A DNA stretch of 64,000 nt, taken from NCBI RefSeq assembly GCF_032062105.1, contig NW_026927339.1, positions 186,001 to 250,000 on the forward strand, given 5' to 3'. The translations under genes were made by a program, and so were the position numbers. Positions 4,397 to 39,700 of the stretch are shown here, one piece after another. This DNA is from Saccostrea cucullata. Lineage: Eukaryota. The notes beneath the pieces are model-generated. The model did no database searches, was not told the origin of the DNA, and was given only the letters and a program-made list of their open reading frames with translations. Numbering within the stretch: the first letter of the stretch is position 1; each line of letters begins with the position of its first letter.

Positions 4397-4699
4397 CTTA
4401 ACATACCTGCTAAAATAGGTATATGTATATATATGATTTTTAGATGATGTTGATGTTGTAACATTACTATTTTGTATTCATGAAAACACACTTGTCGCAT
4501 CTTAAGATTTCAGATTGATCGGGGCTGTAAACTAAAGTGGTTTTAAACAAAACCAAAGATTACTTTACTAACAGAACTCCTTAGATTCTAAAATACCTAT
4601 GTTGATATATAGAACAGAATTTCTTCTCACTACTTGAAAATATACTAAATTAAATTAAAGATATAATTTTTCTGTGTTCATAGTAACATTTGATATAAC

Positions 4700-5107
4700 A
4701 AATACTATGGAATCGTCGTTGTTCGTTGGGAGCAATGTTAGTGTATTCGTATCATGAATTTGCATCCCAAATGATCATATTTTGTCTTAATATTTATTAA
4801 TAGGATTATCTGAATATACGAGTTGTCCTTGAAATTACTATTCCACGAGCCAAAAGAAAAGTGCTCACCAAGGAACATAACCCCAACGAATTAAAATGAT
4901 AATAAATACTATGGAATCGTCGTTGTTCGTTGGGAGCAATGTTAGTGTATTCGTATCATGAATTTGCATCCCAAATGATCATATTTTGTCTTAATATTTA
5001 TTAATAGGATTATCTGAATATACGAGTTGTCCTTGAAATTACTATTCCACGAGCCAAAAGAAAAGTGCTCACCAAGGAACATAACCCCAACGAATTAAAA
5101 TGATAAT
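4700..5107. repeat. Apparently exact 204-bp tandem duplication
   Basis: AATACTATGGAATCGTCG...GAATTAAAATGATAATA at 4700-4903 and 4904-5107. Confidence 0.92.
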
Positions 5108-7514
5108 ATATAATATATATTATAACAGTTTATTATATTCATATGATGCTTTGAAAATACCATGAAATTGTTTACTGAATTAAGGTCAAATAAGAAATAA
5201 AATAAATATAAATATCGGAATCTCATAACCTGAAAATTTTAATTAATGGCATACTTTAAAAATGATTATTGATAATCTCGAAAGCCACAAAAATGTATAA
5301 ATAGAAATAGAATGAATGGAGATAATAAATAGTATTCAAGAATGAATGGAGATAATGAATTGTTTTGAAGATTAAAAATCCATTAAACAATGATAAAAAA
5401 GGAGCAGAGCAAACACGGGCTTCAAAAAATAAGAGGTGGGATCAGGAGCCATGGATGTGTTAGCATACCCTGCCGACCGGTCACAACCGCCGTGTGCTTA
5501 TTATCATGATTGGGAAATAACGGAAAATGAAATGAAAAACAATACTAGTCCATAGCTAGATTCCAGAATGAAAGCTTCTTTTTGTGATTATGGATGTTGC
5601 CCAGTAGACGTTCTTCATATTAAATGTGTTTCAGAAGATAATTCTGAATCTTCTCGTCGGTTCGTTTGCATAAAATTTGCATGCAAAAGAATAGATGCTG
5701 TAAACATAAGTATTGTTCTTAATCATCATAATATATAATGGCATTTTGCATTCCAGTACATTTTAAGTTGGTGGCTACCCTGCATTTTCTCCAAATATTC
5801 CCAAAATGACTTTTTAATTATAATTAACATTTAATAATAACATGTAAAAAATCCTCTCAATATGATTGCTTTTCGTTTTCTTTTAACCACTGGGCACTTC
5901 ATTATTGGTGATATATAGGATCTCCTATGGTTTGTTATCCCCGAGCTTTGATGAAACATAAAAAATCATATCCAACTACAAATAATCGGAGATTCTTTTT
6001 ATCCCGTGTTAAATACTTCACAACTAATGTTTTACACTAGTTTTATATTGGACTCCTCTTTGTTTTATAAATTTATTTATCCCGTGTATAAATACTCCTT
6101 TATCACATGGATATAACTCATTTGATATTTTTTGATATTCACACTTAAGTGCAGTTATGACGTCATAATTGTTATTGCGTTAGCCTGATGAAGTATAATA
6201 GCGTTGATTCCAATATAAAAACGGCTTAAAATATTGGTTGTGAAAAATTAAACATGGAATGAAAATAATCTCCCATGATTTGTCGTTGATTTAACTTTTA
6301 TCCAAATCGATGTGTGTTTTTATCCCCTCGCCAAGGCTCAGAGATAAAATAAAACACGCAACTTGTTGGATAGACGAAGGGATAAAAACACACAAGGTGT
6401 TGGATAAAAATCATATTCAACTATGTGTACAAATCATGGGATATCTTACATATATTTGAAAATGAAGAAATTAAAGCAAAAAGTGTAAAAAAAAAAAAAA
6501 AAAATTATCTGATCAACTTCATTTCCTTTATGAGTTCTGTCGAAAATTATGACAAGCTATGGGCTAAATATTTATAATTTTGAAATTTTGAAATAAAAAA
6601 AAATCATTTGATTAAAGATATGAATAGACACACTTATTCATGGAGCATTTTGATTTAATGAGATACCAAATACCATTATCATTCTACATTTTTGATTTGG
6701 ACTGAGATTGGCATGCTTTGTATTCTCCGCCTCGTCATGCATGTTGTCAGAACTTGATCAGTGATGAAAGTGATGGAAGCTGTTTCTTTATTTTATCAAA
6801 TATATATTTTCTACAGTACTTTTGAAGTAACTCCTTTGCCTTTTTCTTTATAAAATTCTTGTGCTCGGTAAGTATCTATAGAAGATTTTTATAGATTTTT
6901 TATGAGTTTTCATAATATTAAGTATGCTTTTATCACTAAATTATGACAAATAATGACGTTTATTGGGACAACGAACAGTTTTCAAACTCAAAGTTCCATT
7001 AAACAATACAAATGTTAATAGACTTTTGAGAGAAGCGCTGACCTAAATAGATTACGTTTGAATTAGACATTAAAACCTGTATCATGTACGGAGGAACAGA
7101 ATTGATGAAAGATAAGAAAAACCTGTTTAGTAGTCATAGCTATGGTGTTTGGGGCATGTGAAGGCCGGGAGTTAAGGACAGGTTGGTTGTCGTTTTCTTC
7201 AAGGCCAACTTATATTCGCATTGAACTTATCCATTACTTTCGTTTAAAAAAATGTCGAAATGAATATCTATATCGTAAAGGAGCTTCCGTACATTGCTCT
7301 AGTGAAAAATAAGATGACAACTGTAAAAGTCAGTATTTCCCGCAAAATTCCATAGGAGCAGAGCGAACGAACGTTTTGAATATCAGAGGTGGGATCCTTA
7401 TTTAAATAAAAGTGTCAATTGGTATTTTAGTAAGCTAAATAGATCGGCATATTATTTTTTTAATGTAGAAATAGAATACAATGAAAGTTATGGAAATTCG
7501 ATTTAGAATACAAT

Positions 7515-9624
7515 CTACCAAATATGTCCATAATTGGTGCTATTCCTTTTTCTGTTCTGTTTGCTGATACCTGATGATCGGAAAGTTTTGAAAGACTGAT
7601 TCATTGGGATTCCGGAAATTTCTACACCGCCACTAGTATCTGTAAAGTCATCAAACTCGTCACTATCAAAATCTCCTTCTTCCGGGCATGTCAATTCCTG
7701 CGATACCTTTAACTTCCGGACCAGGCTGTAGCGCTTTTTGGGTTTTGGTTTACTGTATACAACTTCCGGTTTATCTGTTTCAATATTATCTGTGGACGGT
7801 GTAGTTCCCCTACAATTCTGAGCTCTTGGGGGTAGAATGGGGCTGGTTGAGGTGTTATGCTCAAGGTCTTGATACCTTTCGCTATACGTAGAATGCTGGT
7901 TCTGGTTGGATGGCGTGACATAATCTTTAAAAAAATGAAATTTGTTTATAGAGAAAGTTTCCGTAATTGATTAATTTTCTGTAACTTTATTTTTATATTT
8001 TATTATATATAGATATCGCTTAGGTAATCATTTTCCATGTTTTAAATTCTAGTTGTGATTTACCCAATGCCTCGTTTTTCTTCTGTCTGCCTTTACTGAT
8101 AAAAATAAAAAGAAACAAATTAAATATTGATATGAAAACTGAAGTCTTAAATTTTCAACATTCAACCGCAGTATTTTAATGTAAATATCATACGATTTTG
8201 TTTGGCAAACATTGACGATGTTTTTCCTATAAATGTTTTTAAAGGATGCAATTAAAGACTTACCAAACCTTACACAGGAAAAAAAGTCCAACACAACTAC
8301 ATGAAAGGATAACAAGAAGAAAAGAGGCTCCAGCAATGATCCATAGCTTATCCTTCAGGAAGTCCTCTATCTTTTTGTCAATACTGATATTGGTAAAGTT
8401 TGTATTTGTATCAGTACTGCTATTCTTCAAACTTGGAGTTTCTTCAGGGTTACTCTCTGTATTTAATTGTATGTAAAAAAGAGATGATTAAAAAATGAAT
8501 ACAATGCTGGCATACAAATGTTGGCCTGTTTTGAAATTATGCGAATATTTCATATTTCAGATTATCACAACATTGTAAATTTTATATAATTTTCACATTT
8601 CTAACTTATAAAAATATTTTGTCCCCTTGTAGAACATTATAGTGAAACTTTACAATTATGACTACAGTTGTTATTTCTATTCTATTTTGTAAAAAAAAAG
8701 CTGGTTTAGAACATCTGTATATAACTTCAGTATAGTATATAACATTTTTATCTGTGTTTGAACACATGACAGGTCACAGCTATAGACTCTACAAATCAGT
8801 GAATAAAGATCTTTACTACATGTAGTGCCTGGTTCCAAATTACCTGAACATATCCCTGTTGATCTGTTACAACTTTTTAAACATTTTATTGGACATTCTT
8901 TCTTACAGCCTTTCCCATAATAGCCTTCAGAACATGTTCTACTACAGTTGATTCCTTGTGTTCCAGAAGGACATTCTATAAAAGACGGTATATACTTCTG
9001 CCAATACTTTTTAAATGTATTGTCCTAGGATATCATCTCACTATTACTCCTCATGAACTAGACATAAGATGCAGACAATTTTTGATATACTTCTTGCTTA
9101 TCGATTGATTTTTATTCAAGTAACAAAGGGCATAAAAATATAAAACGTAAAAGGATATGAAAAGGAAAAAAGATGTTTTTTTTTGCTTTCCTCTAAAACA
9201 GTTATGTATTTAAGTTAAACCGTGTGGTGGTTCATTAATTTTAGTTATTGTCCTTGATGTAGTTTATACAATGTATAGATAATTTTGCTTTATATATCTT
9301 AAATAAAAACAAAGAAGGAGACTGTGTTTTAGTTGATTTGATTCTTCATCACAGATTCATTTTCTATTCCATGAAAAATCTTTTTTTTTTCTTGTATTAT
9401 TTGATAATTGATGAATGTTACCTGTACATAAATCCTTGTAGAGGAAATAACCAGGGCAGCATTTGCCAGAACTGAAAAATAACAGTAAAAGATTTATTAA
9501 TACCTCCAGCTAAAAGCGTGAATTCCACCTACAAAAAAGGATTTCCTTACCCACACATGTTTGGATCGTTTGTGACAGCCAGATGGACGACACGTAGGAT
9601 CAAAACAAAAAACAGAACGTCCAT
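7515..9624 (-). CDS. R2: complete mini MEGF10/Draper/Nimrod-like type-I receptor, 296 aa. Exons 9624-9551, 9471-9422, 8975-8844, 8456-8264, 8095-8064, 7924-7515
   Basis: 891 nt in frame, all introns GT-AG. MDVLFFVLILRVVHLAVTNDPNMCG|SGKCCPGYFLYKDLCT|ECPSGTQGINCSRTCSEGYYGKGCKKECPIKCLKSCNRSTGICS, then a Ser/Thr/Asn stalk and TM LWIIAGASFLLVILSCSCVGLFFL, basic juxtamembrane KGRQKK, and tail DYVTP..YQDL..PILPPR..VVYSKP..KRYSLV..FDSDEFDD..SFKTF..TNYGHIW*. An in-frame upstream ATG is at 9630. Confidence 0.92.
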
Positions 9625-9660
9625 TTTCATCTTTTGTAATTAAAATTTATTTCAGTGACT

Positions 9661-18232: not shown

Positions 18233-19209
18233 AAGATGTCAATATACAGTTTATTAAGAAATTTCTAAATAAATTGTATGATTTGTGGAGAAAAAAGTGA
18301 TAAATTTATTTCATCAAGTCTCTATAGTGAGAACTTTCCACTGACATGATTATGAATAAGAAAAGCGTCTATCAAGGATAGAAAGCATATACTATATGAA
18401 CATAGCAAGAAGAATTAAGGCCCAGATGTCCCATTGAAATGCATCGAATTGGCAGCGGAAAAAAACATAAAAAACACAAATCTCTGAAACAATCAGATAT
18501 GGATTACGCCCATTAAGGAGTAAGCATGTCCTGTGGACATCTTTTATTCACCAAGCGCTCTTTATCATGATCTGTCAAATAGAATATTTTCGTTTACCTG
18601 ACGTGGCTACATCTTCACTTTACTGGTGCGTAGAAATTATTAGCAGGTGCGAATTTTATACAATAGATTCAGCATACCGATTACGTAAAAATGGAAGTAA
18701 AACAAAATTGACCTGTTCTTAGATTCCATGTTGTGCATGTTCCTGAACTTCTGGACAGTAAGAGGTTAATTTCAGGCTAGGGTTTGATCAATTTTTCCAA
18801 CTTTTTCAGATCAATTTTAAATCTAGCTTATTTTTTGTGCGAGCTGTTTTACTGCTGATTTCAGGCGGTAGAAAAACATTTGTATAAATGATATAAAAAT
18901 AATAATGTATTTATTAAAGTTAATATTTTTTTTTAATTTTTCTCTCAACCTAATGAATACTTATATAATTAAAATGCTTTTTAAAAAGATCTTTTTAAAC
19001 ATTTCTCTCAGAGGACGTGAAGCAAAAATTTTGACATAATTACGTATTGGAAATTAAAGAAATACATGACTGTTAAGTGAAAGTGTAAAAAAAAAAGTAA
19101 CAATAAAGTAACTTTAGATCATGTTAAGCTTTATAGATAAACAAAAGCAATAATATTGTAAAAATACATAATATTATTGTTAAAATTAAAACATATGTTC
19201 ATAGCTGGT

Positions 19210-21781
19210 TCACGTCTGTTTCTTGTCAGCTGTGGATATGAAGGTGTTGACAGAATGTTCTACACTGTTTATTACATCCGTTTCGTCATCAAATTCGTCG
19301 CTATCAAATACGTCTTCTCCATCTGACACATCCTGACATAGCAGTTCCAGAGACATGTCCGATTCCTGCTTTGTATTGTGGCACTTTTTCTTTTCTGGTT
19401 TACTGTAAACCACTCCTGACTCGTCTGTTGAGGTTTTGTCGGCGGACCAATTGGTTTCTCTATAATCCTGGGCATGAGATTGTAGAATTGAGCTGCTATG
19501 GTAGATTTGCATTTTCCTGTCATTTTCGTTCCTTTCGTTGTTTGAGGAAATCTGATTTTGGCTAGCGGAAATAGCATTATCTTAAATATAAAAAAAAAGA
19601 AGTTAACAAGTCTGCTCAGGCACTGATGATCTTAATTACTAAATTGTTTTTGGTGCTCTTCTGATTTGTGACAAAACCCTACAAAATATTTTTATCTGGT
19701 GCAATATATTTTCTTTCAGTTATTTTTTATCATAACATTTTTAATGAAACAAGAACCTTTACCAAATTGCCCCTTCTTTTTATGTCTCTCTTTACTGAAA
19801 AAGAAAAAAAATAGATCTATATTTATAAGATAAAATCCCATTTGTTTGAAATAGATATGGTAAGCAAATACGGAATTGCTAATCGATTAACCGCAAGACA
19901 TTCCGACCGATTATCCTGTTAAATCGTATCAAAATGCACAGTTTTCGGCTTTTTCTCCCCAAGAACATTCTGACAATAAATTTTCAAACCACGAAAAACA
20001 TTTCCTCTCTTGTATGATCTATACCAATAGAGAAAAAATGCTTTTCTGCAAGTCGTTCCATCTTTTACCATCAATTTTTTTTTTTAGAAATATTTTCTAT
20101 ATCCACAAAATATAAATTGTCTTAATCATATTTTTCCAGGATTATTTTTAAAAGGAAACAAGAATTTTCAGTGGATAAATCTGCAAATTTATAAAGAATT
20201 CTGAAATTCAGAATGTCACGAAAACTTGTCAAAATAACAAGATGCAAGAGGCAAAGTAGAAACATATGTTTAGATGCATGTATCAAGATGCACTGTGTAA
20301 AACTGTCTCTAATATGAACAGAAAATTGTATGATAGAAATTTTACCAGAGTAGGAAAGATCCCATACAAGTACAGCAAATAAGAACAAAGGCTGATGATG
20401 TTCCAATAACGACCAATAACCTTTCCACCGGGAATTTGTCTAGTTCTTTTACAAAACAAATTTAGATATAAATGTTAATGCTTTCCTTTATTTGAGTCTT
20501 ATTTCAAAAGGTTTCTTTTTATCCTTGCAATGGTTGCTCTTCCGAAAATGTTTGTTCTGAATAGTCTTCAAATTCATGTTCATTAATTTACCTAAACATA
20601 TCCCTGTTGTTTTATTGCAGCTGTCTTCACACATAGTCGGACATCTTTCTTTGCAATTTTTTCCATAATATCTCTCCGGACATTCTTCGCTACAATTTTT
20701 TCCGTAACTTCCAGGAAAACATTCTGTAAAAAATAATTCAATTAATTGCAATATCCTTGCTTTAATTGAATGTAAGAAAAAGGCCTTGGTCAATTCTATC
20801 TAGTCAGTTCTTCTGAGTAAAGAAAATTCACATTATTCTTTTCACATATAATTTTGGGGGAAAAAATTAAACAGAAAAGGCTAGTGGAAAATAAGTTTAT
20901 ATTATAGTCCTTTCAAAAATGGCAAGCAATCATTTAAAGTAAACATTTGGTTCCTTTTTGTTTATTGATTTCCTTTGAAAATTCAATCCTCAACGTGATA
21001 AGTATTCTAACTAGTATTCTGCCCTGAATTCTTTTATTTGTTAGGACGTAATATTTATATCGACATCTGACTACTTTGATTGATGTATATTGTAGGGCTC
21101 CCGTCAGATGCGACTGGTCGATAGGAGATGCTTACTCCTTCGTGGTACATGGTCACATTTCCTATTTTTTTAGAGGCTTTACCATGTTTACTATTTGTGC
21201 AGTAAAGGTTTTTGCAATTGTTCACTGTTCATTAGTTTTATATTTTTTACTTTATTTATGTTTTTTCCCATTTATACTTCACTTAACGATAAATTTCAAG
21301 GACATGGTGTTTTCTGGTTTATCACATTATACACTTGTCGGATCACGTGGTAAGGAACGTAATAAAAATGGCAGTGCTTTTTTATGCGACGTACCGTTAT
21401 AAGTGCATCTATTGTTATTTTTATGTAATTTTAACTTGAAAGAACATATAATTACTCTCATTCATATACACTATCGATGATAATATACACATTTTGTCCT
21501 TATAGAAATTACACATTAAACAGTTGCACTGAAACACTAAATACTTACTCATTTTTTTTTAATTACCTGTACATTTGTTTTCTCGGAGAAAATATCCAGT
21601 ACAGCATATTCCCGGTCTGTAAAACACATTATTGTTATTTTTACGTATAATATGTCTATGCTATTGTTTGAAACACTAATAAAACCAACAAAACTTGTTC
21701 GACTCACCCACACATGTTTGGGTCCTTTGTGACGGCAGTGTGCAAGACGTTTAGGAATATCACAAACGACACAAGGTCCAT
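19210..21781 (-). CDS. R4: complete paralogue, 252 aa, short stalk and tyrosine-depleted tail. Exons 21781-21708, 21616-21567, 20723-20592, 20445-20346, 19794-19763, 19580-19210
   Basis: 759 nt in frame. MDLVSFVIFLNVLHTAVTKDPNMCG|PGICCTGYFLRENKCT|ECFPGSYGKNCSEECPERYYGKNCKERCPTMCEDSCNKTTGICL|ELDKFPVERLLVVIGTSSAFVLICCTCMGSFLL|CKERHKKKGQF|DNAISASQNQ..VVYSKP..FDSDEFDD..KKQT*. The tail matches ORF 19210..19512 and the EGF exon matches ORF 20488..20793. Confidence 0.9.
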
Positions 21782-22002
21782 TTTCATTTACCTCAAATTA
21801 AATTTTAATGTATGTTTCCTTGTAAAGTCCTTTGAATGTATAACAATTATATATTGAAAATGACCAGGAAAAAAGGGCCCTTCCCTCATTAGTAAATATG
21901 TACCAGGTGTTTAATTTTTAGAAAGTTTTGATGTAAGGCATTACTCAATATATCAGAAACATATCAAATAATTAAATATTTTATACTAATAATGCAACAT
22001 GT

Positions 22003-25062: not shown

Positions 25063-28000
25063 CTACTCCCAAACATTTCCATATGCTGTGTTTGCTCCAT
25101 AATCTGCCTCTTCCTTCTCATCCAGGGACTGGAAGGTTTTGAAGGATTTTTCTTGGGGAAGTCCTGAAATTTTTACACTCCCCTTGGGAAGTCCTGAGAT
25201 TTGTACACCACTTGTTGTGTCTGCACCAACACCAAAATCGTCACATACCTCCTCATCCTCAGAAACATCTGGACACAACGTCACTTCCTGTGACACCGAT
25301 GACCTCCAGATAAAGCTGTAGCGCTTCTTTGTTGTAGGTTTACTGTATTCACAGGATTGATTGCTTTCCTTTGTATTTGATAATTGTTTGGTTAGTGTGC
25401 TTTTTACACTACAGTTGGTTCGAATGGATCCACTCGGGATGTTAGAGTAATCAGGTTCATGTCTCGAACTGTTTGATGACTGTGGTTTTTGATTTGTTGG
25501 ATGAGTACCATCTAAAAACAAGAAAAAATGAAATTGAAATTGAAAACGAAATCCGTGTTTTATATAATTGAATACTGTTCGTTCTCTCCATATGTTTCAT
25601 TGATAGTCAATTCCTATACAATTATCAAAAAACATTGTCGAAAGTCTATTTCTCTACAAATATAATTGTGTCAAACTAACGTGAACGTTAAAAAGCGCCT
25701 ACTGTTGACTTGTGTTTAATTCAAGCAATAAAATATATTTATCCTTTATCCATTTTTGTTCATCGTGACAAGGAGCTTACGGAAGGTGTGTCCACTCGGA
25801 AGTGTATGCTCACTCCTCAATGGCACATGATCTCACCTCTGATGTTTTTGAGTTCCGGATTTGCTCTTCTACTATTTTGGTTGATGGGCTTCTGAGTTTG
25901 AATACTGTTTGTTATATCCATATATTTCATTACTATTGATGAATGTAAGAGATTATGCTAATATTTACCATTTGTTCTATTCATCTTGAAACATTTTCTG
26001 CAAAATGAGAGAGAAAAATATAATATTAAAATGAATCTTGAAATATTTACAAATTGAATTATTGAGTTAAATTTAATATATTTATCTTCCAACTGTAATT
26101 AAAAAAAAATTATTTTTAATCGTTCAATTTTCATATTAAAACATTCATATTTCAATCATTCATGATGATAACAGGGATGATAAAATTTGGAAAAAAAACA
26201 TTAAAAGACGTTCTACAAAGTTTACACAACAAAAATGAATTTATACGTACAGGGCTTGAGAGAGGTGAATTAAGCCAATAGAACCACACAAAATGAGCAG
26301 TAAAAGAAAGGTCACCCCTCCTATAAGCCACGCGTTCTTCTTCAGAAAGTGCTCTATCTGCGTCTCAATGCTGTTGTTCTGGGTGTTGTTATCTACTACA
26401 AATAGATATCCTATTTTATCAGAAAAGTCACAAGGCCGTAACTGCTATTGAGGCAAGTGAGGCAAATGCCTCACTAATTTTGTAGAGGTTTCTGAAAAGT
26501 GAGTAAAGTTTTACATTTAACTTATGAATTATGTGCGTCTTCATGCCAAATTAATATTTTCAAATTTTGTTTCAATTTTGTAAATTGTTAATCTCATCAG
26601 GTGTCTCGTTTTCATTTAGAATGCATCATTGTGAAATGTGATTCAAAATGTTTGTTTTGTAAATTGTTTGATTGTTTTACATCCCTTCTAAGAATACTAG
26701 TATTCCATTCATATTGAGACACCACTACTTGCCGGTGGAGAGTTAAATCTGTACTGGGCTTTCAGGGTCACTGAAGATGATTGAACAGTGAGACATCTTT
26801 TTGTGCCATCACTTACTGTGATATAGGACCTCGGTTTCTACGGTCTCATCCAAAGGACCAGTTTCCACATCTTGCAGTGGAATTCGAATCCATAATGTAA
26901 GGATCAACTCCTTAGTCTGCGACTCTAGAGCATACCTCAACCACTGTGCCATGCGGGTGACAGTTTAAAACGTAAAAACCTTCTAAAATTTTTTATCTTT
27001 TATTTATATTCTAATACCAAGGTGTAAGGATCCCCTGTAACCCCCGTCACTACCCATCAGGTATAACCCTTGCCCCGTCTAGGACAAGGAGTGCCCAACA
27101 CCCTTGCCTCACTAAAAATTTGAGCCTAGTTACGGCCTTGAAAGATGGAGATAAAGAAAAGCATTCAAGATCAAACGTCCATATTTCTTTTTTTTTTTTT
27201 TTTTGACAAGAAAGATGTTTAATTCAGTGTGAAAGTAATGATCAAGCTTGCATTTTTAACATAATGAAATATTTTGCATTATCTTTATTAACGAGAAGAA
27301 CAACACAATTGCTTTATTAATTAAAGGCTTAAATATCTCCTAACTTCCATTGACTACAAAACATGCGAAGAAAGGTTTTTAAAATTCGAACTGATAATTG
27401 ATACACTTACGTGGACATCTTCCCGTGACCTCATTACAGTTGTTCTTACATTCAAATGGACAATCATTCCTGCAAAGCTCTCCATAAAACCCAGTAGGAC
27501 ACGCTTGACTGCAGTTTTCCCCAATTTGACCAGACCTGCACACTGAAAAAACACTGTCGTTTACTTTAGATTCCGTTAAATATAAGAGGGATTAATTACC
27601 GTGTAATGTCGCGAAAAGTACCGATCGTGAAATAGAATTACTAGTATGCTTTAATTTTAATGTTTCTGTCCATTTAAAATCTCTAAATCAATTGTTCACT
27701 CGCGAATTATTGTTCTCACAATTTCATGTTTAAGACCCGTTTGCAATATTAAGTACTTGCGTAAGAGAGGAAATCTAAATTATTGAAGATACAAACCCTT
27801 CAATATATAATGGATTAGAAAAAATATATACCTGTACATATCTCATTATGAAGAAAATAGCCCGCACAACACCGCATTCTGCAATTAAAGCAGATCTTAT
27901 TCATTTGTAAGATCCGTTTATCTTTTCTGAATATATAAAAGAGAGACAAAAAAGACAAACAAACTAGCAGTTTTGTCTTTCAGGTCTTACCCACACATGT

Positions 28001-28073
28001 TAGGATCCGGGGTGGCAGATGACACATAAATTTTAATGAAGCTTGGGAGAAGTATAAGAACAATTCCATCCAT
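25063..28073 (-). CDS. R5: complete paralogue, 294 aa. Exons 28073-27991, 27878-27832, 27542-27411, 26395-26251, 25997-25969, 25511-25063
   Basis: 885 nt in frame. MDGIVLILLPSFIKIYVSSATPDPNMCG|MRCCAGYFLHNEICT|VCRSGQIGENCSQACPTGFYGELCRNDCPFECKNNCNEVTGRCP|LDNNTQNNSIETQIEHFLKKNAWLIGGVTFLLLLILCGSIGLIHLSQA|LKCFKMNRTN|DGTHP..DYSNI..EYSKP..KRYSFI..SFKTF..DYGANTAYGNVWE*. The tail corresponds to ORF 25063..25521. Confidence 0.92.
26431..27140. mobile_element. hAT-like MITE (13-bp TIR CAAGGCCGTAACT) in intron 3 of R5, with a nested SINE at about 26665-26960
   Basis: CAAGGCCGTAACT...AGTTACGGCCTTG with subterminal GAGGCAA/TTGCCTC repeats. No clean 8-bp TSD. Confidence 0.7.
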
Positions 28074-28182
28074 TTTCCCCACAATATACCAAGTAAACAT
28101 GCACAGTTCCTGTTGTTTTATTTCATATATGAACATTTTTGATATAAAGCAAACAGGAAGAATACGCGGAAAAATGAGCTTT

Positions 28183-28215
<33 letters not shown>

Positions 28216-28507
28216 TTAAATTCAAAAAAAAATGTTGGATTGAAGAAATTGTTTAACATTTATTTGATGGCATTTGAAAATCTTGGTAATTCCAGAGCTA
28301 ACCCAGAAAGTGAGAATAGATATTTTGTCTACTTTGGTCAACTGATGATATATCAGGCTCAAAACAAAATGTAAATGAATTCAAAATTCCATCCTTTATT
28401 CTAGAAGTTGTGTAATTCAGATGTACATTATTAAAAAAAATCGAAAGAGTTTTCAGAAAATTTATATCGACATTTTCCTTTAAGTTAAAAATATCGACTT
28501 TTATACA

Positions 28508-28570
28508 AATCGCCCGAAATATGGCTGAAATTTTGCCGACTCGGCGTTAAACAAAAATGATCAATCAATC
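28508..28570 (+). mobile_element. Short SINE/LINE 3' tail
   Basis: ATATGGCTGAAATTTTGCCGACTCGGCGTTAAAC..(ATCA)n, flanked by ATCGACTTTTA repeats. Confidence 0.55.
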
Positions 28571-28929
28571 GACTTTTACGCACTTAATATGACTGTTTCT
28601 CAAGATAAATAAAAAATGAGCTTTTTAATTTGACATCAAATTCAACTGTTCCTTCTGTAAAAATTGAACTCGGAAGGAAAATTTGCTATCCTTTGTTTTT
28701 ATTTTCATCAAGAAAACCCTTTTATAAAAAAAAAATCATTCTGATTATACACATAAGTACTCTGAAAGTGATTTTTAAAAGATGCTAGATTTCCTTTTTG
28801 GCAAAATTTATGTACTATTCCGGGAACTGATCATTCAAAAAGACTATTGGAAATCGAATGGGCACAAATGTTGATGGTTATTTTGACCATCTTTTGATGT
28901 TAAATCGGAATTTGAAAAAAGAGAACATA

Positions 28930-29204
28930 CACTGAAAAAAAATTACTGAAAGTCACTGGGAAGACAAGTAAATTTACTGTCCATACAATCACTACCTCAA
29001 AAGTAGTTTTACTGGGAATTGGGTAGATTTACTAGATAACATTAGTAAATCTAAGAATTATAAGTAACTTTCACTAGGTATTTAAGTATCTTTACGACCA
29101 CTACTCCACTTTTCACTATTTTACTAGTAAACAGAGTGATTACTAATCACGAAGAACGCTTTACTAGGCACACTAGTTAAATCAACTAAGTATTTCTTTC
29201 AGTG
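28930..29204. mobile_element. MITE with CACTG...CAGTG termini and TA duplication (CACTA/EnSpm-like)
   Basis: TA|CACTGAAAAAAAATTACT ... AGTATTTCTTTCAGTG|TA with internal TTTACT/AGTAAA repeats. Confidence 0.7.
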
Positions 29205-29219
29205 TAGGAAAAAGAAAGC

Positions 29220-29890
29220 ACAAGCTTTATGAAGCATTCAAATTGGCATTTAGATAAACCGATGATGTATTATAAATAAAGAAAAGTTACATCCCTTTTT
29301 ATGCCAAAGAGTATTCCATTGAAATCATATTTAGATATTTTTGAGAAAAATACGTTAACGGTTATCAAAGAACCAAACTTTATGATAAACGTCGTAATTC
29401 ATTTTCTTTAATTGTCAACTTTCTTTGAAAAAAGGAATAAACCCTCACACCAGCATATGATTTGGTCTTCCAGTAGACTCGATACACAATATCCTGCTCT
29501 ACGTAAGAACAATTTCTAAAGCAAGATTCAATTTTGACAATCAAGTTGATGAAACAAACGTTTGCAATTATCTTTTAGCAAGTTCTCTTGTCGACATAAT
29601 GGCCTTATCATTGCCTATCGAAAGCTCATCAATTACATTTTTCTTGTAAAGTGTTATGCCATCATTAACACGCAAAATTTCTTACGTATATTTCATTTAA
29701 CTCACCATTACAAGGAGCACAAGTGGATGTGCCCGGCCGATAGGATATGCTTACTCCTTCACTGTACTTGATGTGATATTTTATAGCTCCAAGGAACCTC
29801 CATTTTTTTTTTTTTTGGAGAGTTGTGTTTGCTCTTCAATCGATTTGATTGTTTCAAACGATTCTGGGTGATTGGTTGTGGTCATTTTAG
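29220..29890 (+). mobile_element. Degenerate Penelope-like fragment. Similar short fragments at about 1165-1278(-), 5380-5530(-), 10150-10415(-), 13560-13650(+), 14310-14490(-), 21090-21250(+), 23160-23450(+), 25750-25930(+), 33760-34300(+), 36420-36580(+), 53620-53980(+), 54065-54322(-), 62445-63060(-)
   Basis: By-eye similarity to the RT C-terminus and tail of the 3466-3969 and 44560-45262 copies. Boundaries are approximate. Confidence 0.65.
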
Positions 29891-30624
29891 ACTTTATTGA
29901 TCTTCTTTAGAAGAAGAGTTACACATAAAGATTTACAAAAAAAGATCAAAATTTAAAACTGAAATGTACGAATTTTTTTGACAATGCTCAAGATTTCACA
30001 TCTTAGAAATCAAGGTATAACTGATGGTTTTTTATACGTATTCCTTATAAGTCAATGTTCACATCACATGATATTTATTGTGTATTTCTCAGTGATCGGA
30101 GGTTGTTCTTGAGATGAAGCCAAATGAAGCTGAATGCGTTGTATGACTTGTCCGTCCATGCTACTTTACTCAAAGTCCATTCTTAATAAGGCATCCTACA
30201 GTGAGTGTAGTGGTTGAAGGCTATCCCATATACTGTCCGTCCTGAATAAGGCATCCTACAGTATATGCGGTAGTCCGAGGACGACTAGGCTCTTGTGTCA
30301 GGGTAGAACTCTCAGTTAATTGTTGCAAGCCTCTGATTATTATAGTAATTTTAAACATTTGATCTAATGGTTTTCGAGGTTTCTGTTTCCATTGCTCTCA
30401 ACTTGTATCATTTAAATGGACTTGTATACTTTATCTTAAGATTATACCTCTCATATTTATTCTTATTGCATTTTCCTATTAAATATATTTTAATTCTTAG
30501 ACAAAGTCTCTGACATGAAGACATTTAGAACAATTTCTTGAATTGTTCTGGCACATAATGTTTAGTAATTGATCTGATTCCTTGCTGTAAATGCCTGAAA
30601 GGAATTTTGAAGCTGAAGATCCAT

Positions 30625-33600
30625 TTATACAACGTCTAAATATTGCTCGCTTTGCTCATGGGCTTCTGGTAAGTAATTAAAATCGTTTCCTATCGTATGA
30701 CGTTTCTGTGCCGATTCCACACTCAATCTTGTATTCAAAGCTATTCTGCCCTGTCCTACTTTGTAGTCAGCAGATGTAAACGATGGTTTATTAGCGATCT
30801 TTTTATCTGTAAGAGTTCATACTTAGCTATTTACTGTTATCAAAGAGACTATTATATCGTGTCTTATATCACGAAATGAAATGTTAAAATTTCGGTCCAT
30901 ACCCTTCAAAATTCTTTTTCCAATCAATCTAACTTTATAAATGGTGTAGCTGAAAAAGAAAAAAAGAAACACACCATTGATTCATGAAGATAATCTTACA
31001 AACCACAAAGGAACTATATAGAGTTTAATGTATGATCATGAGGATATGAGAAGAAAAAAACAAAATCATAGAAAACAATGTAGGCTTTTTTTTACAGACA
31101 TTCTAAGTTTAAATGTATAGAAATAGAATTAGTTATTAGATCAACCTGGTCATTACAAAGATTCCAAATACTGAGATGGTAATGATGATCTGCAGGGCGA
31201 ACAGTCCAGACAAATAAGTCAAACTGTTGTTCCAATCCTCCACAGTTATAACTGCGTTAGGCCTTCAGAAAAAAAAACAAACTCAACAAAAACAAATTCC
31301 CTTTTAAAGCGGAGTAACAACAAGATTTCTTTTCCTAATCATTTGAGAGTTTACTTTTTAATACATTTATCCAATACATACCTTGTTTTTATAACTTCAA
31401 TTGATTCAGTTTTCATTTTCTGTTTAATATCTGGACAAAGATCATGAAAGAAAATAATATATAAAAATATGATTTTATTTTCTATATTTTATTTCTTTAA
31501 TTTATTCTAATTATTGTAAAATAAAAACAATGCGGTTAGGATAAGTGTATCTCAGAGAAGTGTGAGGAATTATTTATTTATTTCATTTCATGGATGCTTT
31601 TATATTTGTATTATTTATTACACAAAAGATTGTATTCGTATGGATTTGTGATAACAATTCCAGTAAAGCTAATTAACATGTATTTTCATACCTAGACATG
31701 TTCCGTTAACTTTGTTACATTTCCCCATACACTCCTGTGGACACTCCTGCCTGCACTGTCTTCCATAAAATCCCTCAGGACAAATTTCAGTACAGTTTAT
31801 ACCAACTGTTCCTTCATAACATTCTGAAAAGAAGCATTATTTCCTTATTCCTGTTTTTTTTTCATGCAATTATGGTAAAAGGAAGAGATTTTTTTTTTCA
31901 TTTTAATTCCTTCAAAAAATGATTTGTCCCAATTTTAAAAGAAAGGTTTTATTTTATCATGACCTTATAAAAAATGATATAAAAAATTAAATGTCCATGA
32001 AATTAAAAAAAAACTCACCTACAGAATCAAAATTTCACTAATCTATTGGTAAAATTTCATGAACCGCTCACGTGCAAAGAAAACAATCAATCAAAATATT
32101 AGGACATCAATTTCATCTAATCAGTTTATTGTCTGTTGTCTATTTTATTTTATTTTATTTATACATTATTTATTTCTTTGATAGATATCTTGATAGGATT
32201 TGCATGCTCATGCAGTTGATATTTACACTAGTACCTGTACATCTGTCTCTATAGAGAAAAAATCCAGCACAACAATTGTTTCTAAAAGTAAATCAAAATT
32301 TTCATTTTGTTTTTCTCAAAAAATTTTAAGCTAATTCTTATACATGTAATAACATTCATAGACATCCTTATGGAGTTCTGATCAAGCCACTTTTAGAAAT
32401 TAAAAATATTCATTTCTAAAAAGAAACTGAAGAGTTTTCTCAATTTGTACCCTTGTTATAATTTTGATAAAATTCTTCATTAATTAGATCTAGTATATGA
32501 AAGATTCCTATCAAATTTGAGAAATATATTCCTTTAATGATATGAAAAGAATTCAAAAAATCTACTAGATCTTGACCTTATGTGTCAGATTTATAACTTA
32601 TAACAATAGAACATTGAAGAATATAGATAGATTAATTGTACACCACAAAAATATAGTTATTTCCACGATTTGATTATTATTTTCATATAAAAATACCATC
32701 CACCTGCTCTTTAAAAGCCATATTTGAATCAAGTATACTTTCAAAAATAATTTTTATTTCCGTATGTACAAAAAATAGAATTGAAAAAGAACTTGAACGC
32801 AGAGGAATGAAATTTATTGATTTCATTAAAAAAAATTCTATAGTAAATCACTTTAATATATAATACTTTGTCTCAATATGATTCATTATAACTCTATCAA
32901 TTTTTAAAAATTCTTTTATACAAGAACTTATTCATTTTTTTTTTCAAAATAAAAACACTTGGTGTTCCATTTAACTCGATATTTCAATATATTTCAGAAG
33001 TAGCTTTCAATGTCGACATGTTTTGTCCTGGTAAACTAGAAATTTGACATTAACATAGTAAGCCATGTTAGAATAAGATTTTTTTTTTACTGTAAAACGA
33101 AAATGGCTAGCTTGTCAACTTCTTCAAATCATAAAAAATTATTTATATTTATATCAATACTGTAAATCACTTTTTATTCCCGAGAACGTTATTTTCGCGT
33201 ATTTTAGTCTTTCTTATGATTATACAGAGCAATAACCACAAAATGTTCAAAATTTTGTCTCGCTTATTAAGAATCAATGCTTGTATTGGGAGAATAAGGT
33301 GTTTTGAAAAGTGATCTACTGTGTAAGGTAGAATTTAACATTTTGAGCAATAATTCTTGACTTGAACTTGTCAAAACTCTTTGGTTTGAAAACGTCAAAA
33401 CTCTTATTTTACACCATGAAGAAGATTTATCGTGGCAATGACATTTGGAGATAACGCCAAGCTCAAAAGACCATCCAAAAAATACAAATTGGGATCAGAG
33501 TAAAACAAACCTCCTCAACATGCCATGAAAATGTATGTATTCCCTGATTTACAAATCCCTTCTTAGCAAAGCAGCAATGAATAAATATTACATGTATTAG

Positions 33601-35158
33601 TATGATAGATTGAGTAGAATTACTATTTTCGGAAAAAATTATGTTTCTCTTTAAAATAATTACACACTGTAGCAATAAACCCTATATACTAAAGGATTAT
33701 TGTTACCTGCTTTGTTAAAATGGATAATTTTATTGACTAGGTATAGTCAATTAACAATGAAAACTTCCATTCATATCTTGCCTGGATATATCCTAATGAG
33801 CTTTAAACAAAAGATACAACAGATTTCGACAGATTAGTTTCGTATTATGATGTTTCATTAGCAAAAGACGTTTTAAATTTAAATTCTAAGTTGACAACTT
33901 CCTTTACTTCTGTTGTATATAACCTTATCAGATGCAAACTGCTTTATATATTCTATTACAAAAGATCATGCTCTATGTTTTAACTATTTAAAAGAAAGCA
34001 ATCTATTGAATGTGTAAATTCTAAATTTCTACGTATGGTGATTTTGTCAGCAAATACAATCTTTCATTAAGTAAAATGCTGATTGACATTTTTTCAACTA
34101 ACAACTGTTAGGCTGTCATTTTCACTCTGAAGTGTCAACGAATTTTCTTGGTTTTTTGTTGTTTTTTTTTTTTACACGACAGGTGTGACCGTCTGCAGGG
34201 GATGCTCACTTATCCATAGCGCTAAACGCCCCTTCGAGTTTTTTAGAAGTCAGTGTTTGCTCTGCCCCAGGCTTGTAGTGTTCAAATGGATTTCTGATAT
34301 TGAATATTAGATTGATTGATTAATTGTATATTGTTTAACGTCCCTCTTGAGATTTTTTCACTCACATGGAGACGTCACCGTATGCCGTTGAAGGGCTTCA
34401 AATTTTGACCTTTTCTCGGCACTCAGGGCCATTGAGAAGTGAGGGATCTTTTTCTTGCCAACACCTGCTGCTTTCACGGGGTCTCGGTTTTATGGTCTCA
34501 TCCGAAGGACCCGCAACTTTCACTTCAAAGTGCCGAGCGCATGGCCAAGGAACAGTTGCTACCCATTTTTTATAGACTTAGGTCAGTCGCGGCCGAGATA
34601 CGAACTCACGACCTCCTGTTCACGAAGCGAGTATTGAATATTAGGCGTTATCTCTTTTTCCCTTTTTATTTTAGCTTAAAATTTGATTATGTAGTACAGT
34701 AAATGAAATGAATTTGCAGTAAATTTATTTCTTTGAGAAAACTTTCAACCTTGAGATAAATCTTCAAAATAGTACTTTCAATGTTTATTTTATTATATTA
34801 ACATTCCTTTGCTTAGCATTTTTTGTGTTTTCAGTTGTTCGATAAGTTTATCAAAATTCACAAACTAAGAAATCAAATTATGTTTGAATAAGTTATTTTA
34901 TTATATTAACATTCCTTTGCTTAGCATTTTTTGTGTTTTCAGTTGTTCGATAAGTTTATCAAAATTCACAAACTAAGAAATCAAATTATGTTTGAATAAG
35001 TATATCTTCATTGAAATACGTATTAAAAGAGACTTTCTATTCCAGAGAAGTATTTTAAATGTTCTGCAGAATATAACCTACCCGCAGTGATTAGGATCCA
35101 GAGTAATCGATGTCAGATTGTTGTTGTTAAGAATTGCAGTAGTAAAAACAAATTCCAT
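30625..35158 (-). CDS. R6: complete 7-exon paralogue, 216 aa, short tail. Exons 35158-35082, 32281-32235, 31823-31692, 31430-31382, 31262-31146, 30949-30903, 30806-30625
   Basis: 651 nt in frame. MEFVFTTAILNNNNLTSITLDPNHCG|NNCCAGFFLYRDRCT|ECYEGTVGINCTEICPEGFYGRQCRQECPQECMGKCNKVNGTCL|DIKQKMKTESIEVIKT|RPNAVITVEDWNNSLTYLSGLFALQIIITISVFGIFVMT|SYTIYKVRLIGKRILK|DKKIANKPSFTSADYKV..NYLPEAHEQSEQYLDVV*. The signal peptide is weak. Exon phases mirror R7. Confidence 0.82.
34311..34631 (-). mobile_element. tRNA-derived SINE (5'-clipped) with a 13-bp TSD, inserted in a Penelope-like tail
   Basis: TSD TATTGAATATTAG at 34298-34310 and 34632-34644. B-box-like GAGTTCGTATCTC on the minus strand and an (ATCA)n tail. 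Confidence 0.88.
34785..35001. repeat. Apparently exact 108-bp tandem duplication in R6 intron 1
   Basis: TTATTTTATTATATTAACATTCC...GTTTGAATAAG twice. Confidence 0.92.
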
Positions 35159-36786
35159 TTTGAAATTTGTACAAATGGTGTCCCTTTTTGGAACTCTATA
35201 CTTACAAACAGGAATGATTTTTAAAGAGGTTATGTCCTCCTATAGATAGCATCCGCTTAATAAAAAAAATAGAATATTTTTTTTAAATATAGAAATATTG
35301 TACAGGATTAAACACTTATATCTGAAGAACACTTTAATGTAAATCAAAGTGGATTCTGAAATTATCGAAAGAGTTTTTATAATTTTTAATTCTTTTACAT
35401 GTTTGAATACTCACAGTATTTATAACATAAGGAATAATTTCTTAATTGAAAATATAAAATTTACAGTCAATTTTGAAGATCGGGTATTTCAGCAATCTGT
35501 CAAAATTGACAAATTAATGCATGGATTGAACAGCAAGCATAAATGTCTATGATCGTTCTCCCTGTCGGTCTTTAATTGAGTAATATTTGTGTACCTTTTT
35601 ACAAAGACCTAAATGTTTGTTCTTAGCTCGATTTAAAAAATTCAGTTCAACATTCAAATATATCGGAGAGTAATATAATATTATTTATAGTACATGTATG
35701 AAGAAGTATTATCAATTTACAATAGAAACATCCATCCGACTCAATATATCCTTGTGAACTTAAAGATTAAACTAGAGATACTATAAACAATAAGTTCAAT
35801 AAATGATATTGTACCACTACTTTTATTTGGTTATAATGGCAAAGTCCATTTGTCCTCTAGAAGAGGCAAAATAAGTGTCAGATCAAAATGTAAAAAACAG
35901 GTGGTCAAAATTGAATTATGTAATAAAGAATCAGTGAAAGTTATAATCATTACATTTTATTCAGAGGTGTAGGAGGTACAGAGAAGATATGGATATCCTT
36001 CAATATACAGAAAGAATGAACGTGTCCATGTTTTGCTCTTGAAAACCCAAGGTATATTTGTACTCCAAAGCGTAACAGAGGGACGGACGGACAGCCGTCA
36101 AGACAGACATATGTATGGACGGACGGATGGACAACCCGAATACTATATACCCCCCGCTTTTCAAACGGATGGCTTAAAATTTCACAAAATCTGACCAGTA
36201 TATTAATTCAACTTTTATATATTTTAATAGAACATGTTAGTGATAAATTAACAAAAAATCAAAACATAATTTTAGAAAACGCGACATAACTACAACTATT
36301 GTCCTGCAGAACACATACTACTGGTGACGTAAGTATTGATAATGAAGAACTCTAATTGCTTATTTTAAAAAGGATAAAAATGTAGGGAATCTTTATTTTA
36401 AAACTAGCGTCTTAATTTTGTTATTTTACGATTGTGTCAAGGAGCAAGAAACAGGTGTAACTGGCCGGCAGGGGATGGTAGCTATTCCATGACCCCTGAT
36501 CCCATCTCTAATGTTTGCTCTCCGTCTTCTTCTCTTTTTTGTGAAGCGTGAATTATGCTCGTTTTCTCCATATTCTCATACTTCTTGAATTATTAAGAAG
36601 ATGACATCAAGTGCCCGAATGAAATACTTTCATAGAAATCATTTTGAAAAAATTCAGTTTGAATCAATTTTAAACTTCTAAATCAAAGATCGAGCATTTT
36701 TATTCTTCATCATTCAATAAAACTGCCTCCCTACGTAATATTTCAACAGTATATATTTTTTTCCAGTTGTTTTTCTCTGTAAGATA

Positions 36787-39700
36787 TTACAAGACTTCTG
36801 TATACTGTCCACTGCGTTCTGTGGCCATAGGAGTCAGGTACTGCCCAGTAGAGGAAGTCAAATGCTGGCCAGTAGAAGGGGTCAAATACTCTGACTGGTT
36901 CTGTAATGTAAGGCCTGTATATGTTGATGATTTCTCTTTCTTAGAAACGCCAGCATGGTCTGACTGGTAAACAGCCTGATAATCTGCAGATAATAACATA
37001 CTTAAAAATATACTGTATAAGAGTTATATTTACAACAACAACATGAATGGTAAACTTAAAGAAATAACGAAAGGATGCTCCAATATGTACCTCTCTGGGA
37101 AGTTTTCCTGTTGTATTTCGTTGAGAGGAAAGTTGTATAGCTACATTAATAATATAAAAATCTTCTTATTGACAATTCAATTCATTATTTGTATTTATTA
37201 CATACATAGTTATAAATACAGAATTTTTGCATATGTGATATGCCTAACATCATAATAGTCGTATCGACTGATATGGATCTGCGTGGCTGATACGGATCAA
37301 TATTATATAAGAGGATTATTTTCGTAGTTTTCATTGGCTGAAAGGACGTCACATGACATTCCTCCTTTCGCGATAGCGACGCGAAAGCGCGTCCGCAGAA
37401 AATGATATCGCACGACACGCCGTTCGGTTGCACTGAAGTTACGTAGAACGTGACGTCATAATAAAAAAAACGTGAATCTAACCATTGTGACGTAATTACA
37501 GCCAAGTCCGTTGTGTTAGGACTGTGTCGGTGCATTCAATTTGAGTGATTATATAATATAAATATTATGGACTTCAGTGAACGGTCAATATGTGGTTATA
37601 AGGACTCATGGCAATTGATATTGACCTCAGACACAGAAAATGATAGCGACCTCGCAGGCTCGGTCGCTATCACTTTCTGTGTCTTCGGTCAATATCAATT
37701 GCCATGAGTCCTTATAACCACATATCGACCTACACTGAAGTCCATAATTGTATAATATTACACCCCTAGTAAGTGAAACCTTTACAAAACAGTATCTTGT
37801 GATAATACACACATAATTTTGTGTTCACATTCTCATAATTTTTAAATTATTGGTCTTTGAAACAATAAGCTACATATTGTCAGTAGGTAGTGCTTGATTA
37901 TATATTTGTATTTTTGTCAAGTTAAAGTGTGCTGTACATTATTACTAAGTATGTTATAAACATTATAAAACATCTCGTACCTTTTCTACATCATATCCTG
38001 TAAGCACTCGACCAATATCAGCCCTCGGGCCTTCGACCCCCTGACTGATATTGTTGTCTCGGGCTGATATAGGACGTGGCATGGAAAAGGGGTATGTATT
38101 ATTCTCTATGTATTCCTTCTTTTGTGAATCTATGTCAACATTTCTTGATATAAAATTAAAAAAGAAAGTTTGATTTGTACATACGCTTTTATTGAGCTCA
38201 AAAGTCTGTTTGAACTGTACAAAAGAGAGAGAATATACGCACCTGGTAACAACAAGTAACAGAAGAACCGCTATTACAACCACTATATGTGATGCCAGAA
38301 GTCCCAGAATAAAACTTGTAATGTTGCTTAACTTCTTATCTACGTCACTGCTGTAAAAAAGAAAGACGGATATAGCTGTTTAAGGTCAAGATCTAGTAAA
38401 TGAAAGATGCCTACAGATTTATCAAATTTGAGAAACAAATTCCTTTAATGATGCTTTATAAATAAAGATTGGCTAAATAAGGTGTTTCGGGTCATAATTT
38501 GTAGGTAAACAAGGTGAAGAACCATATTTTAAACAGTCATTTTCAATATAAAATTAAGAAAACCGATCATGAATATGGTTTTTTTTTTCATATTCGACAA
38601 AGGAAATTTATCCAGATTGCCTACAGTGTCTCAGAAAACGGTAATTTGTATGTTCACGGTCTCTTCTTTAAAATAATGTCAAATTTAATATGGGTATCCA
38701 GATTACTTTTCATATAATTTCAAATTGAATGCCATGAAAATACTCTTTTTTCTACATAATTCTGCTACAGCCGTAAAGTACGGAAAGAAAGTTGAAATTG
38801 ATTATGACGTCATCATGGATCTAGCACCACAAAATCAGTCTAAAGTCATTTACTAGATCTTGACCTTAATTACGTCTCTACTTCAAAATTTAAGTCTTAG
38901 AAACTAGATTCTTTAAGTTGTACTAATTTAACATATGTTTTTCCTATCTTTAATGTATTTGCAATGTTATGGATTCTAAAAATAAACTTTTATAAAACTA
39001 TTACATAACATTTTTCTTATTGCTAACCTTCTCTTTCACACATTTGCAATGAGGGCTAGAGAGGGATAAAATATTATTTGATTACATTTAAAATAACTTT
39101 ATCTGGTCACAAAAGCTTACATATTATACTTCTGAATCCGTTGACCTGTTGGAAACGTCGATGTATTTTCCTCGTACGCCTCTTCTGATTAAGAAAGCAT
39201 GTAGTTAATTCGAATATGTAAAAATAAAAATGGTATGAGGCAAATTACGTATGAAAGGAATTAAAGTTTTACGCATTAATAATGCAAAAAAAAAAAACAA
39301 TTACGCTATTAGCAGCTTTAAAATTCTACTTAAATTTACATGTACATGTACATCATGTAATACTATGGTAAACCTTTCTTAGTTATCAAACAGAAAAACT
39401 TTCCCTACCGAATCATTATTTTTTATGCGCCCGTATCGACAAATCAGAGGCGTATATTGTTTTTGTCCTGTCTGTTTGTTTGTTTGTCTGCAAACTTTAA
39501 CCTTCGTCATAACTTTTGAACCATGAAAGATAGAGACTTAACATTTGGTATCCTTACTACACTAGTTAAATTCTTACAATGATACCAAGGTCATTGACTT
39601 TGTGACCTTGACTGTGACCTATATGCTAAAAATAACGTCTTTGTCTGCAAAATTTAACCCTCGTCATAACTTTTACGCCTTGAAAGATGGAGACTTTATA

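Follow-up and report, generated by a model that had tools for sequence, protein, structure and literature searches.

A derived stop codon strands the terminal tyrosine motif of R4, a receptor gene in a tandem array of the oyster Saccostrea cucullata

Organization of the R4 gene

The window analysed here is a stretch of 64,000 nucleotides of the oyster Saccostrea cucullata (contig C9476, i.e. NW_026927339.1, positions 186001-250000), in an assembly of 1.17 Gb. The minus strand carries a tandem array that includes R4, a six-exon gene for a single-pass receptor. All the introns of R4 are GT-AG and the only stop before the end of its frame is a TGA that cuts off the terminal tyrosine motif of the cytoplasmic tail. 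This TGA is a derived change and rather likely a nonsense allele. The features of R4 are given below with the state of the second R4 copy of the assembly (the alternate copy, on contig C14731) and of DNA run X1.

21708..21787, minus strand: exon 1, start codon and hydrophobic signal peptide, ending in DPNMC; the exon logic also reproduces recorded paralogue proteins
21567..21616, minus strand: exon 2, CCxGY motif (PGICCTGYFLRENKCT), CCTGY in R4
20592..20723, minus strand: exon 3, one EGF-like cysteine module (EGF_PEAR1L at E 0.018, under the cut-off; family profile against SCARF1 at E 0.00049)
20346..20445, minus strand: exon 4, stalk of ~9 residues and Cys-rich transmembrane helix; alternative in-frame acceptor at 20439
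20340..20345, minus strand: donor after the transmembrane exon, a weak GTAAAA; GTAAGT in run X1, GTACGT in the alternate copy
19763..19794, minus strand: exon 5, basic juxtamembrane segment KERHKKKGQF
19213..19580, minus strand: exon 6, coding part, disordered cytoplasmic tail with VVYSKP, FDSDEFDD and three tyrosines
19210..19212, minus strand: derived TGA, codon 255; AGA (Arg) in the alternate copy and run X1, the sense form having 262 residues
19186..19209, minus strand: stranded terminal motif TSYEHMF and ancestral TAA; TDYEHMF in the sense copies

The exon model is based on homology and, judged by comparison with related proteins, appears well founded. The same exon logic reproduced the recorded proteins of the paralogue R2 (P0049), P0011 and P0047, and likewise P0048 except for the longer N-terminus of that record. 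Every cysteine of the R4 ectodomain is retained. A preliminary description, made from the letters of the window, held that the gene is intact apart from its stop. This is true of the frame, of the GT-AG introns and of the lack of any other stop, but not of the donor following the transmembrane exon, which is GTAAAA in the window copy of R4 versus GTAAGT or GTACGT in the remaining seven of the eight gene models. The very short stalk that it reported is confirmed. The disorder of the tail is predicted from the AlphaFold model of R2 (pLDDT <50).

The last exon (19580-19210, minus strand) encodes DNAIS...RNEND...VVYSKPEKKKCHNTK...FDSDEFDD...KKQT, followed by TGA at 19212-19210. In the same frame, positions 19209-19186 read ACC AGC TAT GAA CAT ATG TTT TAA. 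The letters first described, i.e. the changes from R2 (DNAIS, RNEND), the kept FDSDEFDD, the stop and the TSYEHMF-TAA continuation, are all found. The sole protein record found for the window copy, P0003, has 100 residues and runs from an internal methionine to the TGA. Protein searches found no full-length record of the sense copy, and exact look-ups of two internal-methionine forms of its tail exon matched no record.

Sense versions of the stop codon

Only one further R4 tail turned up when the assembly was searched at the protein and DNA levels. It lies on contig C14731 (73% protein and 85% DNA identity), which brings the R4 tail copies to two only. At the stop site, C14731 reads ACG AGA ACA GAC TAT GAA CAT ATG TTT TAA, its product ending ...KKQTRTDYEHMF. 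The peptide stranded in the window copy aligns with the terminal motif of the paralogues. It is not a chance resemblance, since this peptide also lies in frame in the second R4 copy, and the homology initially proposed for it therefore holds.

Run X1 comes from another sample and has the best word share with the window among the runs listed (0.12), none of which contains half of the window's words. One X1 contig lies over the site, with AGA and GAC at a depth of 105.6 of 105.6. Two others, with depths of 62-66, cover the 5' part of the R4 tail exon, which suggests that both X1 haplotypes carry AGA. The X1 pieces listed differ from the window by 17 of 289, 19 of 214 and 12 of 235 letters (plus 17, 2 and 0 gaps) and are nearer to the window R4 than C14731 is, so that the TGA likely arose within the haplotype class of the window.

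Both of the two other sources covering the codon thus have AGA, and TGA is seen in the window haplotype only, i.e. in one of three sources. Since AGA occurs in the alternate R4 copy and in an independent DNA run, the TGA is a derived change; the same two sources support a segregating nonsense allele, one of the options that had been proposed at the outset. The stop removes 8 of 262 residues, including the family-conserved terminal tyrosine. Among the 2358 possible single-base changes in R4, 117 (~5%) create a stop, only five of these within the last 10 codons. The position near the end is therefore more in line with a real variant that passed a filter than with an error at random.

Tail tyrosines and terminal motif

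The tail alignment comprises 20 rows, i.e. eight gene models and 12 proteins from other oysters. Four tyrosines are family-wide: those of RYE (17/20 rows), YSK (19/20), KRYS (13/20) and the terminal motif (19/20, counting the stranded one). Both R4 copies lack the RYE and KRYS tyrosines, keep that of YSK and have a new tyrosine (IYHS/NYLS), while the DYRE tyrosine is found in the window copy only. With the terminal tyrosine stranded, YSK is the only one of the four left in the coding tail of the window allele.

R4 was at first said to have shed most of its tail tyrosines. Its coding tail indeed has three tyrosines versus six in R2, and those of RYE and KRYS are lost, but the statement is exaggerated for the others. 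The DYVTP tyrosine is present in three of the 20 rows and the TYSE one in five, all within the R2/Rm2 clade, and from this distribution both are likely gains on the R2 side. Reading the polarity of changes from R2 alone thus fails for DYVTP once the family is aligned. The short stalk is common to both R4 copies, as is the terminal YEHM (versus YGHI), the sole YxxM of the 20-row set. The other tyrosine losses and the short stalk are older than the stop and pertain to the R4 lineage. The signalling-switched paralogue of the preliminary description would fit this lineage (short stalk, two tyrosines lost, YEHM), but as an event separate from, and older than, the stop.

As regards tail patterns, TxYxx[VI], which we take to be of the switch type, ends R2, R5 and their kin. 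YxxM, presumably of the PI3K type, is found in the two R4 rows only, and [ILVS]xYxx[LVI], assumed to denote an immunoreceptor tyrosine-based inhibitory motif (ITIM), in Magallana short-stalk rows. YxxPhi is taken here as a sorting signal. No canonical ITIM was found by pattern in R4 or R2.

In the tree, R4 groups with the R2/Rm2 clade (99/97). Its orthology with the Magallana short-stalk clade, a group named before the tree was seen, is rejected (approximately unbiased (AU) test, p 0.0005). This separate short-stalk clade (P0010 and P0040-P0043, from Magallana and Logan records) has lost the KRYS tyrosine and carries an ITIM-like V-[EQ]-Y-S-K-V, V-x-Y-x-x-V being gained in 4-5 of its rows. As it is separate from R4, the short-stalk, KRYS-less architecture arose twice. 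A possible, unproven extension of this comparison is that two oyster genera evolved signalling-switched paralogues independently.

The terminal motif YGx[VLI]W is intact in 45 of the 53 protein records that pass the tail filter (58 were fetched, P0008, P0016, P0021, P0022 and P0050 being dropped; the records are redundant). The eight records with a damaged motif correspond to four genes and to one Logan fragment. These genes are Rm2, where Asn replaces the Tyr, the other Rm2 copy, where a stop replaces the last Trp, R4 and the M. gigas records ending in ETY. The motif is thus damaged in three genes besides R4, and in two genera altogether. In M. gigas, P0014 and P0018 end in ETY where P0015 and P0017 end in ETYGKVWL or EAYGKVWL. 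P0014 and the full-length P0017 share the locus id LOC105337920, the truncation being known from protein records alone.

The second copy of the array

Contigs C11087 and C14731, whose overlap is at 98.7%, form together with C201 a tiling path through a single collinear second copy of the array. The two copies are 92-99% identical from R5 on (95-100% for the R5 exons) and 75-90% identical across R2-R4 (82-88% for the R4 exons). The step is sharp: 75-90% across R1-R4 (window ~1-25000 versus C11087/C14731) and 92-99% from R5 (25283-38891 versus C201). It suggests an old, deeply diverged haplotype block or an introgression. The two copies, the short contigs and the convergence on one side would be in keeping with an alternate haplotype that was not purged and that contains a deeply diverged block, which seems likely from the alignments.

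Between the R4 copies, dN is 0.144 and dS 0.321, i.e. dN/dS 0.45 (Fisher p 9e-5; p 8e-5 outside the tail). Judged from these substitutions, purifying selection acts on the whole of R4 between the copies. The tail alone (dN/dS 0.65, p 0.15) is indistinguishable from neutral. The tail of R2 is at 0.09, below that of R4 (p 3e-5). Polarised amino-acid changes number 22 in the window copy and 14 in the other (p 0.24), 33 being unpolarised. Together with the tail dN/dS, these counts indicate that the R4 tail is relaxed or re-purposed in both copies, without clear extra decay in the window copy.

In R2, exons 2-3 (window 9471-8844) show an ectodomain dN/dS of ~1.2 versus their counterparts (dN 0.36-0.41), the tail being at 0.09-0.23. 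Diversifying selection or gene conversion could possibly account for this ectodomain divergence.

Paralogues and other elements of the array

The neighbours of R4 include the following paralogues.

7515..9630, minus strand: R2, intact, ends in TNYGHIW (tail exon 7924-7515); equals recorded protein P0049
13876..14617, minus strand: R3, exons 1-3 only; no transmembrane or tail exon found before R2
25063..28073, minus strand: R5, intact, ends in TAYGNVWE (tail exon 25511-25063); exons 95-100% identical between copies

Several units are damaged. The tail of R1 is frameshifted, no transmembrane exon was found for this gene, and a stop interrupts the EGF exon of its second copy. In Rm3, a stop is present in the tail of one copy but not of the other, and an R3-like unit has a stop in its EGF exon. 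Along with R3, these lesions show that the array undergoes birth and death.

Both R3 and its counterpart on C14731 have open signal, CCxGY and EGF exons, with no transmembrane or tail exon found; R3 could possibly be a secreted form or a fragment. Two recorded proteins join distant units. The isoform P0001 links R2 exon 1 (window 9630-9551) to the body of a paralogue ~31 kb downstream, and P0050 starts with exons 1-2 of an R3-type unit and continues into a paralogue ~35 kb downstream (loci: C9476 ~164.4 kb and C14731). These joins reflect either cross-gene splicing or mis-mapping of reads in the annotation. Two further family members lie at 35161-31693 and 42649-38000 of the window (minus strand), with exons 1-3 found and a transmembrane-like exon near 38379.

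Other elements are also present. A 595-codon open frame at 47943-46159 (minus strand), with an RVT_1 end and zf-RVT, is a piece of a non-LTR (long terminal repeat) retrotransposon. Near-perfect tandem duplications at 4695-5116 (218 bases, 98.6%) and 34785-35001 (109 bases, 100%) are either recent or assembly artefacts. Outside the window, C9476 carries at ~274-297 kb long open frames that look, by eye, like mobile-element integrase, polymerase and zinc-finger proteins, and a tandem repeat open on two strands near 291 kb.

Origin of the stop codon

The favoured explanation, which we consider rather likely, is that the TGA is a derived and likely recent nonsense allele that segregates in the population and is tolerated in a redundant birth-and-death tandem array. 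The redundancy of the array makes this tolerance likely. The first step is observed: the codon is a sense AGA in both other sources. The second R4 copy would then be the other allele. As a stop in the final exon lets an mRNA escape nonsense-mediated decay, the TGA allele would probably produce a 254-residue protein. YxxM and YxxPhi are consensus motifs for the docking of SH2 proteins such as PI3K p85, or for endocytic sorting. By resemblance, the lost YEHM is predicted to be a site of one of these kinds, and its loss would leave YSKP as the only family-wide tyrosine. The result could be a weak-signalling allele drifting in the array. A nonsense allele near the end of an array paralogue is in itself ordinary. 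It also provides a natural deletion: what separates the two alleles of one receptor is a terminal tyrosine motif conserved across oyster genera, so that the role of this motif is testable.

Several points weigh against this explanation. For two alleles, the R4 copies are widely diverged (dS 0.32; exons 82-88% identical), and they could be paralogues born from a local duplication. Gene number is unequal between the array copies, with one extra R2-type gene. X1 may be a related species, in which case the word "segregating" would rest on the alternate contig alone. The tail of R4, as said above, is indistinguishable from a neutral sequence. The RNA runs X5-X7 gave 23, 17 and 32 fitting reads (21, 17 and 31 of them partial), with no read over the stop-codon bin and no RNA splice joint listed, for a read share examined of 44-47% per run. 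Finally, the TGA base call is known from the assembly sequence alone, three derived changes lie within 8 bases (19212, 19206 and 19205; the chance of two more in 7 bases is ~0.02-0.08), and the differences in the contig overlap are clustered (50 substitutions in 5124 columns).

According to a first alternative, which seems unlikely, the TGA haplotype is a null or decaying allele that is not expressed as a full receptor, the stop being one of several lesions. The weak donor GTAAAA would be a second one, as it is a further private change of the window copy (GTAAGT in X1), but the same GTAAAA also occurs at exon 5 of the other R4 copy. In the same way, the window copy is recorded as the 100-residue P0003 only, while R2 and other neighbours are recorded full-length; however, the sense copy likewise has no full-length record found, so that the annotation gap is not allele-specific. 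The pseudogene-like units nearby and the excess of polarised changes in the window copy (22 versus 14) go in the direction of decay, but this excess is not significant. Furthermore, the six exons are in frame with GT-AG ends, the ectodomain cysteines are all kept and a few X5 reads fall in the bins over exons 1-4 and 6.

A second alternative, quite unlikely in our opinion, sees in the stop an adaptive signalling-off decoy allele maintained by balancing selection. The miniature SCARF/Draper-like family of oysters would form a paired-receptor system, with motif swaps among paralogues (TxYxxI, of the switch type, in R2; YxxM, of the PI3K type, in R4; an ITIM type in the Magallana short-stalk clade) and repeatedly arising clipped alleles, retained on ancient, deeply diverged haplotypes, acting as decoys. 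Such a system, inferred from sequence comparisons, would agree with a terminal motif that is kept in most of the filtered records yet hit in four separate genes of two genera, with an R2-R4 block deeply diverged beside the ordinary divergence at R5, and with the contrast between ectodomains (dN/dS ~1.2) and tail (0.09) in R2. The separate short-stalk, KRYS-less clade of Magallana, with its gain of V-x-Y-x-x-V, would also agree with it. However, the TGA is seen in one of three sources, tolerance alone predicts lesions at the end of the protein and the truncation in Magallana comes from protein records. If true, this reading would describe a paired-receptor system with on/off alleles in an invertebrate, which would matter for the immunity and the breeding of oysters.

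An error made in the consensus or the polishing of the assembly is a very unlikely source of the TGA. The TGA was seen once, together with two private changes within 8 bases, and clustered patches of differences occur in a contig overlap expected to be one haplotype. However, the first 1777 columns of this overlap have no substitution. Of the four patches tested, three consist of multicopy repeats (47, 12 and 28 hits) and one, which has 5 substitutions, gave 0 hits. The R4 exon has two copies only, and mis-mapped reads would presumably push the base to AGA. The codon-level differences between the R4 copies are so numerous (~124) that most are real, and ~5% of random changes make stops.

Lastly, a programmed readthrough (or editing or splicing) switch controlling the dosage of the terminal motif, as first envisaged, is highly improbable: the post-stop peptide still looks like coding sequence and a second stop closes it, but both other sources lack the TGA, its context is TGA-A (TGA-ACC) instead of the leaky TGA-C, and the region 3' of it shows no special fold (z -1.09; 29/200 shuffles as good). 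A 9-base GT...AG micro-intron around the stop (19213-19205) was also considered and rejected, as spliceosomal introns are far longer than this.

Comparison with known systems

A profile of eight tail exons, run against 1.84 billion proteins, retrieves 10 at E 0.001, and the named cluster members of its matches are oysters only (Saccostrea, Ostrea, Magallana/Crassostrea). The R4 tail alone, used as a query, found nothing at E 0.01 among 142 candidates, while the tail profile did find relatives. No paper on this oyster receptor family was found in literature searches that covered few subscription journals, gene-list supplements of oyster transcriptome papers being outside their scope. The AlphaFold model of R2 has a mean pLDDT of 52.5 (74-90 in the ectodomain). 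With this model, Foldseek gave no match at E 0.001 and a wide structural search matched the transmembrane helix only. The leads of the Atlas are unnamed mollusc clusters (0.93-0.94) and MEGF10/draper clusters (0.83-0.85).

The closest known receptors are SCARF1 (PDB 8hn0, 8hna), MEGF10 and Draper. They share with the oyster family a signal peptide, a CC-x-x-Y/W followed by an EGF-like module, one transmembrane helix and a disordered tail bearing tyrosines. The likeness to SCARF1 is weak (family profile E 0.00049; top row in Foldseek at E 0.14), and MEGF10-like, draper-like and SCARF2 are automatic names of oyster family records. Receptors of this type have many tandem EGF-like repeats, with an EMI domain and NPxY in MEGF10 and Draper. 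In contrast, the oyster members have one cysteine module and an ectodomain of ~60 residues. A single cysteine exon is found in R4 and in all eight gene models, and the relative P0028 has three modules. The EMI Pfam domain was hit in none of 18 members at E 0.1, and NPxY is found in none of the 20 rows. R4 may function as a small-scale SCARF/Draper-type receptor whose tyrosine tail resembles that of an adaptor, although it is not filed in those families.

According to the part of PMC4073527 cited here, members of the Nimrod superfamily (NimB/C, Eater) have a signal peptide as well as CCxGY ahead of cysteine-rich repeats. R4, with its hydrophobic exon 1 and CCTGY, resembles them. Strict CCxGY is found in only eight of the 20 rows, and membership is rejected, as the NIM repeat CxPxCxxxCxNGxCxxPxxCxCxxGY occurs in none of them, be the pattern strict or relaxed.

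The transmembrane and tail regions recall adaptors of the SCIMP type by their Cys-bearing transmembrane helix, basic juxtamembrane stretch and non-catalytic tail with multiple tyrosines. PF15050, which we take to represent SCIMP and a role as palmitoylated transmembrane adaptor, matches 13 of 18 family members at E <=0.1 (best 1.3e-7; R2 has 26 bits versus a cut-off of 27), a match that may be compositional. Unlike SCIMP, the oyster proteins carry an EGF-like ectodomain.

Paired activating and inhibitory immune receptors of vertebrates are known to have polymorphic null or decoy alleles. The R4 array resembles them by its tandem paralogues with similar ectodomains, differing tail tyrosine motifs and diverged haplotypes. 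It differs from them in that it is known from sequence alone and in that patterns show no canonical ITIM in R4 or R2.

The insect readthrough genes of PMC5100048, in the part considered, share with R4 a TGA, which is there common as a readthrough codon, a short in-frame coding-like peptide and a second stop. The R4 stop is not conserved, and stops limited to close relatives are excluded there as likely recent nonsense.

The nearest parallel to the favoured explanation is that of polymorphic premature stops in multigene families. In section 9 of PMC2493042, premature stops of a human exome are enriched in duplicated regions and in larger gene families. As in the cases treated in that section, the R4 stop is found on one haplotype, close paralogues lie in a duplicated region and a sense allele exists elsewhere. 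Unlike them, it removes eight residues only, yet these hold the family-conserved tyrosine motif.

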